From Promethearchaeia archaeon (GTDB lineage Archaea; Asgardarchaeota; Lokiarchaeia; Sigyniarchaeales; SOKP01), in contig JAHQWG010000050.1 of the NCBI GenBank assembly GCA_029856045.1, forward strand, positions 29,471 through 93,470: DNA of 64,000 bases. The letters run 5' to 3'. Below, one piece after another: positions 19,891 through 23,605 of the stretch. The notes beneath the pieces are model-generated. The model saw nothing but the letters and a program-made list of their open reading frames with translations. It ran no database searches and was not told where the DNA came from. Position numbers and translations under genes: made by a program. How positions within the stretch are numbered: position 1 is the first letter of the stretch; each line of letters starts with the position of its first letter.

Positions 19891-20772
19891 TTATTTGATA
19901 AATCCGCTCAATTTTAAACCTTTTATTAACCATGAAATCATTAATTGCAATCCATGTATGTTCTCAATAGTAAATATTTTCGAATCTGGTATAAAAGTTT
20001 CCTGATATTTCGCTGTTACATATTCTGCCGATGGATTTTCATTATACCATTTAATGAACGCATCCTTTGTTTTAAAATGAATTTCTTCCATATTGTTGAA
20101 AATTTTATCCAAATCTTCATCTGTCCATACTCCAAAATGAGATAAAGAAATTGAATTTAAATTTTCTCTCATTTTTCTCAATTTTTCAATCGTTTTAATG
20201 AGTTCTACTTCATTGAAATCGGGCGGCATAAAATTTGGTATAATAGTGTCGTGATCCCATTTATGATGAATAGGTTCTCCTAGAAAAATATTTTTATTTT
20301 TCTTATCAAAAATAGCAATACAATCCAATGAATGTCCAAAAACATTTATAACTTCCAATTTTAAACCATTTAAATTAATTATTGCTCCTTCTTTTAATGG
20401 TATGACATTTTCTACTGGATTCACAGTCGCTTCATAGGGTTCATTCATCCTTTCTGGATTTTTCAAGTCTTCTATAGCGTTTTCTGAAGCTAAAACTTCA
20501 AAATCTCCCATTAATTTCTTTAACTTACCAACACCTTGTACATGATCCCAATGAGAATGGGTTAAGAGCAATTTATGAATTGGGAATAATCCAAATTCTT
20601 TTAATTTTTTTACAATTTTTCTAGCTGCTATTTCTGATGAAGTATCGATCATCATCCGCATTCCATTGTTCTCAATTACGTAGATAGCCATGACTCCAGT
20701 CATTCGAAATAACTGTCCATCTATAAGATAAGAATTTTCGTTAAATTTCCCTTCAGAATTTATAAAAACCAT
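19891..20772 (-). CDS. MBL-fold metallohydrolase
   Basis: THSHWDH and GHS motifs. Confidence 0.88.
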   Translation of the reverse strand: MVFINSEGKFNENSYLIDGQLFRMTGVMAIYVIENNGMRMMIDTSSEIAARKIVKKLKEFGLFPIHKLLLTHSHWDHVQGVGKLKKLMGDFEVLASENAIEDLKNPERMNEPYEATVNPVENVIPLKEGAIINLNGLKLEVINVFGHSLDCIAIFDKKNKNIFLGEPIHHKWDHDTIIPNFMPPDFNEVELIKTIEKLRKMRENLNSISLSHFGVWTDEDLDKIFNNMEEIHFKTKDAFIKWYNENPSAEYVTAKYQETFIPDSKIFTIENIHGLQLMISWLIKGLKLSGFIK

Positions 20773-20842
20773 ACTTAAATATGTATCAATATATTATATA
20801 ATGTCTTCCTTGTTGGGAGAATAAATCTTAAAGTATTATAAT

Positions 20843-21451
20843 TTGCCTGTTATGATAGAATGGATAAATTTCATTTCATTGATTCTCAGCGCACTTTTTT
20901 TTTGCTATTTTTATACATTAAGCGTCCAACCAATGAAAAGAAAGGAAAAAAGGGGTGAACAAGCGTGGAAGGATTGCAAGATTTTGCGATCTTTAGCAGG
21001 ACTTTTTGAATTCATTACTATCGTTAATATCTTGCTCTGGGTATGGTTTCCGATTCCTTCATTAAATTGGATAATACATCAAAATATTGGAGTGGGTATA
21101 GGTATATGCATTGCGATTGTTGTTCCTGGTTTTATAATTATTTTTAAAGGCATAAAAGATGCTGGTTTCGAGTCTTTACGTCCATTAGGAGAAACAGAAA
21201 TGTTTGGGGGTATATATAATTATATCCGACATCCTCAAACACTCGGAGAATTCCCAATTTTCATTGCAATTGCCTTTGCCGTCAATTCATGGTTTCTCGT
21301 ATTGTTGATGTCTGTATTAGTTGTAATATATACTCCAATTATGATTCATTATGAAGAAAAAGATCTCATAAAACGTTTTGGAGATAAATATCGTGAATAT
21401 CAACAACGGACAGGTGCTTTATTCCCAAAATTTTGGCATAAATCTGAATAG
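20843..21451 (+). CDS. isoprenylcysteine carboxyl methyltransferase/PEMT family membrane protein
   Basis: GIYNYIRHPQ, EEKDL..RFG..YREYQ motifs; transmembrane segments. Confidence 0.88.
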   Translation: MPVMIEWINFISLILSALFFCYFYTLSVQPMKRKEKRGEQAWKDCKILRSLAGLFEFITIVNILLWVWFPIPSLNWIIHQNIGVGIGICIAIVVPGFIIIFKGIKDAGFESLRPLGETEMFGGIYNYIRHPQTLGEFPIFIAIAFAVNSWFLVLLMSVLVVIYTPIMIHYEEKDLIKRFGDKYREYQQRTGALFPKFWHKSE

Positions 21452-21592
21452 ATTTTGAGTATAATGACGATTTCTTTCAATCCTTATATAATGTAATGAC
21501 AATAGTTACATCTAATAAAGTCAGATAGAAAAAACTATAAGAAAATGTAATATTTTAAAATATTTTTATAATTTATAATCAAGGATGTTATA

Positions 21593-21598
21593 TTTAAA
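21593..21598 (+). promoter_or_regulatory. putative TATA box for the Cys-leader/cysteine synthase transcript
   Basis: TTTAAA about 20-25 nt upstream of the uORF ATG at 21618, consistent with leaderless initiation. Confidence 0.5.
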
Positions 21599-21617
21599 CT
21601 CATATTTTAATAATTTA

Positions 21618-21686
21618 ATGAGATTTAGACAACAGAATCAACCAAATTCTTATTTCTGTAACTGTTGTAGGGATTGTTGTTGCTAA
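21618..21686 (+). CDS. cysteine-rich leader peptide (uORF) MRFRQQNQPNSYFCNCCRDCCC
   Basis: Read manually; 6 of the last 9 codons are Cys; ends 102 nt upstream of cysteine synthase. Confidence 0.8.
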   Translation: MRFRQQNQPNSYFCNCCRDCCC

Positions 21687-21788
21687 AAACAACACCTCAC
21701 ATATTCTCATACATCCATCATACTCCTATAATTATAACGGTATTATGGTGGCTAAATTTATTGATAATAAATCCTTGAGGTAAAAAAA

Positions 21789-22802
21789 ATGACTATATTT
21801 GCAAAGATAAGTAAAAAACTGAATGTAAGCACAAAATCTCAGTTAAGAGTTTTTGAAAGTATTGAGGAGTTGATTGCAACTCCAGAGAATCCAACCCCCT
21901 TAGTTAGATTAAGTGAAAGATTTAATCCGCATAGAAATTTCCCAATATACCTTAAATTAGAGAGATATAACCCATTCGGATCTATAAAAGATAGGATTGC
22001 CCTCTCAATGTTAGAAGGAGTTAAGATAAAAGAAGATCAATACATAATTGAACCTTCATCGGGTAATACCGGTATTGGTTTATCAGCTCTTGCTAATGCG
22101 AAGGGTATTCCAATAGAAATAGCAGTCCCTAGTAGAATCCCTGAAGAAAAGAAGATACTATTAAGGTTATTAGGAGTTAACAACTTGTGGGAAGCAGATG
22201 ATGATTTATGCCCATCATTCCCAAATGAGGGAGCAAGGGGTTTAGTGAATGGGATAATGAAAGGTAAGCGAAGAAAAAGATTTATTAATCCAAATCAATA
22301 TGAGAATCATTTAAACGTTCAAGCACATTATAGAACTACAGGTCCAGAAATTTGGGAACAAACTCAAGGCAAAATTGATTATTTTTTTGGTGCTCTCGGA
22401 ACTGGCGGTACAATAACAGGAGTCGGAAGATATTTAAAGAAAAGAAATCCTTCAGTGAAAATCATAGGTGTTGAACCAGCTAAAGCAGAGCACAATTTAC
22501 CTGGAATGAAGAGAATATCTGATCTTACAGAAGAATTGAAACCAAAAATTTTAGATTATTCTATAATAGATCAAATCTTGGAAGTTGAAGATGATGATGC
22601 GTACCTAACAGGAATCCAATTAGCAAGAAAGAATGGTATTCTTGTTGGCCCCACTACAGGTGCTTTATTATTCGTGGCAATAGAATATGCAAAAGAACAC
22701 AGTGGATTAGCCGTAGTAATTTCTCCAGATGATGCTATGAAATATATAAGTGCTTATGCACCTTATGTAAGGGAAGATGGAATTCCCAAGTTTATGAGCT
22801 AA
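21789..22802 (+). CDS. cysK: cysteine synthase (PLP-dependent, CysK/CysM family)
   Basis: KLERYNPFGSIKDR, EPSSGNTG, NQYEN, TTGPEIW and GTGGT motifs; SD TGAGGT at 21776-21781. Confidence 0.9.
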   Translation: MTIFAKISKKLNVSTKSQLRVFESIEELIATPENPTPLVRLSERFNPHRNFPIYLKLERYNPFGSIKDRIALSMLEGVKIKEDQYIIEPSSGNTGIGLSALANAKGIPIEIAVPSRIPEEKKILLRLLGVNNLWEADDDLCPSFPNEGARGLVNGIMKGKRRKRFINPNQYENHLNVQAHYRTTGPEIWEQTQGKIDYFFGALGTGGTITGVGRYLKKRNPSVKIIGVEPAKAEHNLPGMKRISDLTEELKPKILDYSIIDQILEVEDDDAYLTGIQLARKNGILVGPTTGALLFVAIEYAKEHSGLAVVISPDDAMKYISAYAPYVREDGIPKFMS

Positions 22803-23605
22803 AAATATCTTATATCCACACTTTCATCATCTATGACTTGCTTAAACTCTTGGACAATCCATGCCTTTCTTTCGTCATCTATAGCATAGACGTAATATTT
22901 TGCAGGCATTCTAGCTATAGAATAGACCTGTACTATATCAGGTTTAATTTTTTTAAATGCAAAAGCTAAATCATTTATGTTTTCTGAAGTGTTATTGTCA
23001 GTAAATTTTTCTCTATTTGAATTAAAAATTAAACACTGAATTGCTAATTTATGATCATTCGGCATTTCTCTTTTCAATTTAACGAGGGAGTCAATGATTA
23101 TATCAATATTTGGAACATCTTTATGGGGGCAATTCACTCGTCTAAAATCAATTTCATTCGCTACATCTAATTTTGCCAATACAAGATCAAAATTTTTTAT
23201 TTTTTCCCTTATTTCTTTTAAAAACAAGGTACTAGAGTTAGTAAATAACGTAAGTTGAGGATATTTCTTAGGCCAATTTTTCTCATTTCTAAGTTCTTTA
23301 GCAAGTCTTAAAAAATCTAAGATATTCTCATTTAGCGTAGGTTCTCCATTATAACCAAAAGTGATGGAATTTAAATGAGTTGTATATTTTAAAAATGAAT
23401 GCAATTCTTTTCTAAAATTTTGAGTGGGAGGATCTTTGATTCTATAATCAGGAGGGACTAAATGATCAGGTTGTGTTGATCCAATCTCACAATATACACA
23501 ATTATAAGTGCATTTTTTCATTTTTGGTAAAATATCAACACCAAGGGATGACCCTAACCTTCTAGATAGCCAGGGTCCATAGCAATACCTTCTTGTATTT
23601 CTCAT
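22799..23605 (-). CDS. radical SAM protein
   Basis: YGPWLSRRLGSSLGVD, CTYNCVYC and GEPTL motifs. Confidence 0.88.
   Translation of the reverse strand: MRNTRRYCYGPWLSRRLGSSLGVDILPKMKKCTYNCVYCEIGSTQPDHLVPPDYRIKDPPTQNFRKELHSFLKYTTHLNSITFGYNGEPTLNENILDFLRLAKELRNEKNWPKKYPQLTLFTNSSTLFLKEIREKIKNFDLVLAKLDVANEIDFRRVNCPHKDVPNIDIIIDSLVKLKREMPNDHKLAIQCLIFNSNREKFTDNNTSENINDLAFAFKKIKPDIVQVYSIARMPAKYYVYAIDDERKAWIVQEFKQVIDDESVDIRYF

Follow-up and report, generated by a model that had tools for sequence, protein, structure and literature searches.

A conserved Cys-codon leader ahead of a cysteine-synthase-family gene in an Asgard archaeon, probably a ribosome-dependent cysteine sensor

We examined the region upstream of a cysteine-synthase-family gene in the window, which is the whole 64,000-nt stretch of DNA that was analyzed. 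The intergenic region 5' of this gene is 337 nt long and contains a short open reading frame (sORF) that ends in a run of Cys codons. The locus comprises the following features.

21589-21598, + strand: TATA-like box TATATTTAAA, belonging to the leader promoter, 29 nt ahead of the sORF.
21618-21686, + strand: leader sORF, an open reading frame of 22 codons plus TAA, with the translation MRFRQQNQPNSYFCNCCRDCCC.
21776-21781, + strand: Shine-Dalgarno sequence (SD) TGAGGT of the synthase gene, 7 nt ahead of its ATG.
21789-22802, + strand: gene for a PLP-dependent protein of the cysteine-synthase family, 337 amino acids with one Cys (Pfam PALP, E = 6e-60).

The host genome (3.34 Mb, 29% G+C) is rated 100% complete and carries a full-length archaeal 16S rRNA gene, and the 16S rRNA terminates in GGATCACCTCCT. 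Protein relatives carry the labels Promethearchaeota or Lokiarchaeota. Asgard archaea are the closest prokaryotic relatives of eukaryotes.

The synthase is a fold-type-II PLP enzyme, and O-acetylserine sulfhydrylases are its nearest solved structures. Its gene is the sole CysK-like gene of the host genome at E <= 1e-40. CysK and CysM were the closest models, yet the protein scored under the cut-offs of both, and no CysE (serine O-acetyltransferase) above its cut-off was found in this genome, complete as it is rated. In regards to these two results, the direction in which the synthase is used is not certain, and the enzyme may use O-phosphoserine or run in another direction. An earlier note on this DNA had placed the Cys codons ahead of cysK. 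The codons do belong to a conserved, translated-looking sORF ahead of a cysteine-synthase-family gene. The host genome encodes CysRS and lacks SepRS, which indicates that the charging of tRNA-Cys reports free cysteine. An in-frame ATG 27 nt upstream, which some homologues possess, was rejected as the true start of the gene; it is not conserved, and a stop closes it in one homologous locus (L043).

Six Cys codons lie among the final nine codons of the sORF (21657-21659, 21663-21668, and 21675-21683). No SD was seen ahead of the sORF, and an A/T box begins 28-30 nt 5' of the sORF ATG in 24 of 25 leaders. The fixed position of the TATA-like box at -28 to -30, together with the lack of an SD before the sORF, indicates that the sORF is probably leaderless. 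Given the archaeal TATA-to-start spacing, the position of the box also suggests that the transcript starts at or beside the sORF ATG. The promoter scan used sigma-70 models, which are bacterial and uninformative for an archaeon. The sORF is unique in the 3.34-Mb genome, being the only intergenic sORF (6-47 codons) with at least four Cys codons among its last 10 codons. An origin of the sORF by chance was ruled out by this genome-wide scan and by conservation.

Homologous loci were drawn from assemblies, same-phylum genomes, and JGI metagenomes. We found 26 distinct versions of the leader on low-GC Asgard contigs, ahead of orthologous genes whose products are 66-76% identical to the window synthase; proteins in this range of identity are common in sediment metagenomes. 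The ATG, the terminal Cys run, and the TAA stood in one frame in 26/26 leaders, despite a length range of 20-27 codons. The number of Cys codons per sORF ranged from 4 to 8 over the 26 leaders, and the spacer between the sORF and the gene was 102-115 nt in every one of them. The homologous sORFs share the pattern MRIN..(K)V..LT..CCC..CCC, directly followed by the stop, and they finish 107-115 nt short of the gene. A single gene of the cysteine-synthase family is served by the leader family, whose characteristic conserved boxes are ATGAGAATTAAT, ACAACAG, TTTCATTAATTCTC, and TAACCA/TGGTTA.

This arrangement was present in all low-GC (22-29%) Asgard-type loci with enough upstream DNA, bar a few such as L050 and L058. 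The leader was absent 5' of the high-GC homologues, which are probably bacterial, and no Cys leader was found 5' of the distant CysK paralogues and orthologues (60 relatives, 35-45% identity). The scan of genome contigs with the single synthase protein returned two bacterial loci only, both without the leader. Near-identical contigs with the same protein carried leaders identical to that of the window and hence provided no variation to use. SRR9710522, SRR3095933, SRR9707989, and SRR25617399 are among the sediment metagenome assemblies in which the contig of the window occurs. A covariance model of the leader matched one copy per genome in 9 of the 135 genomes of the family, and all matches lay directly 5' of the synthase gene, save one at a contig end. 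The kept frame, the genome-wide uniqueness, and the placement of the covariance-model matches indicate that the leader unit is real, conserved, and self-contained.

Gene and leader were present in none of the four other genomes of the window's own genus. Proteins 70-76% identical to the synthase carry the NCBI labels Planctomycetota, Deltaproteobacteria, or Sedimentisphaerales. Together with these labels, the patchy distribution suggests that the gene has moved horizontally, and within Asgard lineages gene and leader would have moved as one unit. MBL-fold, PEMT, and radical-SAM genes surround the unit in the window, and in most other genomes (L041, L043, L045:1-1500) it stands beside genes for an SBF/Acr3-like transporter, an ArsR-type regulator, and a Cys-rich DUF2769 protein. 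The form of the leader plus synthase unit was unchanged across these different gene neighbourhoods.

The neighbourhood with the transporter, ArsR, and DUF2769 genes looks like a metalloid or thiol-stress context, and the window copy lies in an unrelated one.

Conservation of helices was read from two alignments of the leaders (A2 and A3), and pairing probabilities for the window were taken from the Boltzmann ensemble of RNA 21614-21820. Four helices, P0 to P3, are conserved together with the sORF and its position. Their elements in the window are as follows.

21618-21623, + strand: 5' arm of P0, ATGAGA (sORF start codon plus 3 nt), invariant in 26/26 leaders.
21634-21650, + strand: hairpin P1, AGAAT/ATTCT, within the sORF just 5' of the Cys codons, recurring in most leaders.
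21669-21697, + strand: hairpin P2, TGTTGTT (21675-21681) paired with AACAACA (21688-21694) and lengthened by GGG:CCT; the loop contains the stop codon.
21703-21710, + strand: ATTCTC box (E box), in which TCTCAT is the 3' arm of P0; ATTCTC is invariant in 26/26 leaders.
21715-21748, + strand: hairpin P3, CCATCATAC/GTATTATGG, with an A/T-rich loop; its core AACCA/TGGTT is paired in 96% of cells.

The helix P0 joins the start of the sORF to the E box. It measures 9 bp in the homologues (GAGAATTAA with TTAATTCTC), where its arms are almost invariant and 98% of cells are paired. Six of these pairs remain in the window (ATGAGA:TCTCAT, p = 0.22). P1 was found in most of the 26 leaders, being weak in about five, with a mean z of -2.8 against shuffles. 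Its stem occurs in four sequences (GGTAAG/CTTACC, GATAGG/CCTATC, ATGTAATG/CATTACAT, and AGAAT/ATTCT), and changes on both sides of a pair were seen among the leaders. P1 is the best covariation evidence for RNA structure in the leader, and its reconstruction from unrelated sequences indicates selection on RNA pairing. Neither P0 nor P1 figures among the pairings of the earlier note.

The hairpin P2 contains the first of five pairings that the earlier note had listed, and every string quoted for the five is present where it was placed. In free RNA, the perfect hairpin that TGTTGTT and AACAACA form over 7 bp has p = 0.94, and the same design was kept as TTGTTGT:ACAACAG in 25 homologues (96% of cells paired). 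Among the P2 cells that depart from the commonest pair, 16 of 23 stay G.U or U.G. The claim that the Cys tract is engaged in RNA pairing is therefore borne out by this conserved hairpin. P3, the CCATCA/TGGTGG hairpin, includes the third pairing, ccatcatac (21715-21723) with gtattatgg (21740-21748), which is present, albeit with 8 of the 9 pairs and one C.U mismatch, and which has a probability of about 0.2 in the ensemble. The sequence of the P3 loop is not conserved among the homologues. Across the 25 homologues the first and third pairings were both conserved with 96% of cells paired, but the second, fourth, and fifth had no counterpart.

A second ACAACAG occurs inside the window sORF (21629-21635, codons 4-6), and the free-RNA prediction joins it to CTGTTGT (21662-21668), the first Cys cluster; both Cys clusters would thus have a complementary partner in the window lineage. 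A different poly-Cys sORF, MKYGEDSRKDSCFLCSCSCMCCC followed by a stop, lies about 137 nt 5' of a gene for a 69%-identical synthase on a 31%-GC contig (L080, Ga0187833_10001479). Its last Cys codons pair with the bases directly past the stop (AUGUGUU:AACACAU), after which TTTCATT follows, so that the P2 design recurs there with other bases (ATGTGTT:AACACAT). The L080 leader is either a distant or a convergent relative of the leader family.

All helices taken together were paired in 95% of cells, compared with 28-54% when the partners were slid. Changes on both sides occurred in 3 of 27 pairs, and most arms were invariant. Support for the helices hence comes largely from conserved sequence, and binding of a protein to DNA or RNA would account for that too. 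The fold of the whole leader was not significant against shuffles (z = -1.13), and Rfam gave no more than chance-level matches across 20500-23000, none of them in the leader on the + strand.

The mostly invariant, rather than covarying, helix arms are what control at the level of DNA would predict. Three GAGAATTAAT-like copies (at the sORF start, in the inverted E box, and in an AGAATT box of the homologues) and the TTAACCA/TGGTTAA inverted repeat would then be operators, the synthase promoter would lie in the A/T-rich P3 loop, and the Cys-rich sORF would be a separate small-protein gene or untranslated. An ArsR-type regulator gene is located upstream in several homologous loci, and the P3 loop of the window contains TATAATTATA about 55 nt ahead of the ATG. 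However, no regulator gene stands beside the unit in the window, and conservation does not extend to a TATA box in the P3 loop. The frame, the Cys run, and the stop were kept through length changes of 20-27 codons, and P1 was rebuilt from unrelated sequences, which indicates selection on RNA pairing. The departures from the commonest pairs in P2 and P3 were kept as G.U in 23 of 31 cells, a form readable only on the + strand RNA. DNA-level control would also leave the Cys codons beside a cysteine gene as an unexplained coincidence. We regard control of this kind as very unlikely.

The other pairings of the earlier note concern alternative partners of the Cys codons and of the SD of the synthase gene. 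The fourth would join the Cys-codon segments actgttgta and ttgtaggg to tataacggt and tcctataa, and the fifth would join tagggatt to aatccttg next to the SD. All these strings are present, but each of the two pairings needs two G.U pairs. Both proved negligible in the ensemble (p = 0 and p <= 0.001, respectively) and were not conserved. The second pairing, for which the ensemble gave 0.09, depends on the following segment.

21694-21699, + strand: ACCTCA, candidate anti-SD and complement of 21776-21781, within segment E', which separates P2 from the ATTCTC box.

ACCTCA is exactly complementary to the SD TGAGGT, as the earlier note had observed. An exact ACCTCA is expected by chance in 2-3% of leaders of the same length and composition. 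The best duplex between the leader and the initiation region in the window was -8.5 kcal/mol, a value matched by 35% of shuffled leaders, and the narrower test of the window E' against the initiation region gave p = 0.01 against shuffles. The observed pairings are real, yet only partly above chance.

To follow the effect of a translating ribosome, ensembles of the window RNA were computed with a masked footprint of 29 nt. On average, the SD was unpaired with a probability of 0.55 in free RNA and of 0.62 when the A site held the stop codon. With the Cys codons 14, 16, and 20 in the A site, the corresponding values were 0.10, 0.07, and 0.09. The accessibility of the SD does differ between ribosome-masked states of the window, as had been anticipated, and ACCTCA paired with the SD at p = 0.85-0.90 only under masked Cys codons. 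The extended P2 (GGG:CCU plus TGTTGTT:AACAACA) occupies the anti-SD in free RNA; when a ribosome covers the Cys codons, P2 releases it, and ACCUCA then pairs with the SD. The models thus contain a switch in the window, in which stalling would close the SD, the reverse of what a biosynthetic gene needs on starvation. The expectation that a ribosome stalled on the Cys codons represents the on-state was contradicted by this predicted polarity (SD unpaired 0.07-0.10).

Neither the SD nor the initiation region as a whole was predicted to change its accessibility consistently in the 25 homologues (four ribosome masks over the 26 leaders). The homologues have GTTTCAT in place of ACCTCA; the window has CCTCAC where they have TTTCAT, and this matches the window's own SD. 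RNAduplex comparisons with shuffles revealed no conserved anti-SD in the homologues, the best duplexes lying at scattered positions and being no better than those of the shuffles. E' of many homologues shows complementarity to the gene's initiation region through GUUUCAU:AUGAAGU and UCUC:GGGA, although no single case reaches significance (p 0.12-0.28). The idea survives in a weaker form, in which the segment after the Cys hairpin is complementary to the initiation region in many homologues. The ACCTCA of the window would fit a rewired switch strand, which lends some credit to the second pairing.

These results bear on a translational attenuator of the type described for the mycobacterial polycysteine leaderless sORFs (the "Cys ribulon", Ms5788A; Canestrari et al.), in which the SD region is bound by the Cys tract itself and becomes open on ribosome stalling (10.1101/834739). 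Applied to the present leader, ACCTCA or the Cys region (by the fifth pairing) would sequester the SD once the sORF is vacated, and stalling would free the SD and turn the gene on. The mechanism is experimentally established in mycobacteria (10.1101/834739). The exact complement of the SD, with its 2-3% chance expectation and the p of 0.01 for E', the SD accessibility that varies across masked states of the window, the lack of a U run there, and the position-equivalent segment of many homologues that is complementary to SD plus start codon all agree with such an attenuator. The polarity, however, is reversed, with stalling at C14, C16, and C20 placing the anti-SD on the SD. The fifth pairing, which is the analogue of the mycobacterial duplex between Cys tract and SD, and the fourth are practically missing from the ensemble. 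ACCTCA itself is not conserved, the duplexes of the homologues do not rise above shuffles, and their SD accessibility is insensitive to masking. A mycobacterial-type attenuator is therefore unlikely in our judgement.

The closest known systems are these mycobacterial sORFs and the classical enterobacterial attenuators. The leader has the logic of both, with end-product codons in a tiny 5' ORF and predicted competing helices, but it lacks a defining feature of each, namely the duplex between Cys tract and SD and, in the window, the terminator. In the mycobacterial case, and probably here as well, the transcript opens with a short ORF. In both, this ORF has a run of Cys codons at its 3' end, about 100 nt of spacer follow, and a gene of cysteine metabolism lies downstream; both would sense charged tRNA-Cys by ribosome pausing, and neither has a leader terminator (here, in the window). 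They differ in that the present leader belongs to an Asgard archaeon and has no evident sequence relationship to the mycobacterial sORFs. Its Cys tract pairs with the local AACAACA past the stop, pairing between the Cys region and the SD being negligible, and stalling is predicted to act on the SD in the opposite sense. The leader has, in addition, the conserved helix P0, which locks the start codon of the sORF.

Leader-peptide attenuation is a textbook bacterial mechanism. As in the enterobacterial attenuators (trpL, hisL, leuL, thrL, and pheL), the present sORF is rich in codons for the end product and lies directly 5' of a biosynthetic gene, and E' is predicted to be a strand shared by two mutually exclusive helices. 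The leader differs from them in that its regulatory codons lie outside the strand that competes for E' and form their own hairpin, P2. No Rfam leader family matched it, the archaeal transcription machinery differs, and the window lacks an intrinsic terminator or U run, a weak one being present only in homologues.

No U run of at least four was found between the sORF stop and the gene in the window, in agreement with the earlier note, and the scan detected no terminator-like site in the window leader. From this lack of a U-rich terminator the note had concluded that control acts on translation rather than on termination. Most homologues do have a U4-U7 run after a possible extended hairpin, and the family as a whole hence cannot be called purely translational. 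In a transcription attenuator, E', P3, and the AGAATT box would form a long hairpin followed by the U run, P0 would be the anti-terminator, and the position of the ribosome would choose between them. In the homologues, E' consists of the ATTCTC box and its 5' neighbour (TTTCATTAATTCTC), and ATTCTC is predicted to favour its P0 partner in free RNA, pairing with the sORF start at p >= 0.7 in 17 of 25 homologue RNAs. Once the 5' arm is masked, the partner becomes the AGAATT...ATGAA box that encloses P3, with ATTCTC:AGAATT at p = 0.5-0.98 in 23 of the 25. A U4-U7 run lies 3' of AGAATT in 17/25 homologues. On the other hand, the window has neither an AGAATT box nor a U run of at least four, a U5 or longer run occurs in seven homologues only, and several carry GAATTCTA or GAATTATA at that place. 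The helix between the ATTCTC and AGAATT boxes (E:G) showed no pair changes on both sides. Archaeal intrinsic termination depends mainly on longer oligo-T tracts, which also counts against transcription attenuation, and to our knowledge its dependence on a hairpin is not established. We consider transcription attenuation improbable for this leader.

We prefer to read 21661-21788 as the 3' half of a cis-acting leader that is self-contained and senses cysteine, and the conserved architecture makes this reasonably likely. The leader is probably Cys-sensing and ribosome-dependent and a member of a new archaeal family. Transcription would begin at or beside the ATG at 21618. A ribosome would then translate the 22-codon sORF, and its dwell time on the Cys codons would be set by the supply of charged tRNA-Cys. 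This dwell would decide which of the competing helices P0, P1, P2, and P3 form. We infer that the leader is translated, that Cys-tRNA is the signal, and that expression of the synthase is the output.

The segment E', between P2 and P3, is the likely switch strand. Its backward partners would be the sORF start or the Cys region, and it would otherwise pair forward, with the SD through ACCTCA in the window and with the AGAATT...ATGAA box or the gene initiation region in the homologues. The alternative partners of E' are predicted from thermodynamic models of A/U-rich RNA and from invariant arms with little covariation. No model derived from them gave a polarity that was both consistent and physiologically sensible in the window and the family alike.

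A broader proposal is put forward tentatively. Asgard archaea might use ribosome-read leader mini-genes as amino-acid gauges, in an architecture without a bacterial counterpart. In this architecture, a helix would lock the 5'-terminal start codon of a leaderless sORF against the ATTCTC switch strand, which would alternatively mask the initiation region of the enzyme, and translation of the sensor and of the enzyme would be mutually exclusive. The window would then represent a rewired variant with a perfect anti-SD.

Our literature search found no published archaeal amino-acid leader or leader-peptide attenuation. If the preferred reading of a ribosome-dependent, cysteine-sensing leader is true, the sensing of tRNA charging by a translating ribosome also works with archaeal transcription and leaderless initiation. 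The leader is a compact element of 190 nt that is amenable to clear mutational tests, and it would aid the annotation of sulfur and cysteine metabolism in uncultured Asgard genomes. The value of the analysis is mainly corrective: the anti-SD pairing is lineage-specific and has the wrong predicted polarity, and the conserved core consists of P0, P1, P2, and P3.

A second candidate leader was observed in the same genome outside the window (G000:C36:46786-46890, + strand, equivalent to L150:187-291). Its sORF, MISGKFYSYLKSKISFDFTFHILHYNPHHHKQHS followed by a stop, has 6 His among its last 14 codons and lies 132 nt ahead of hisC (TIGR01141, with 328 bits, which exceeds the cut-off). In more distant relatives, hisC is part of an operon, and the sORF is missing. 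One close relative (G001, 93% protein identity) keeps HHHKQHS, the stop, and the complement, and a 1-nt indel places them out of frame with the ATG. In the candidate itself, the His codons GCAUCAU pair with AUGAUGC directly past the stop, which is a P2-like design.
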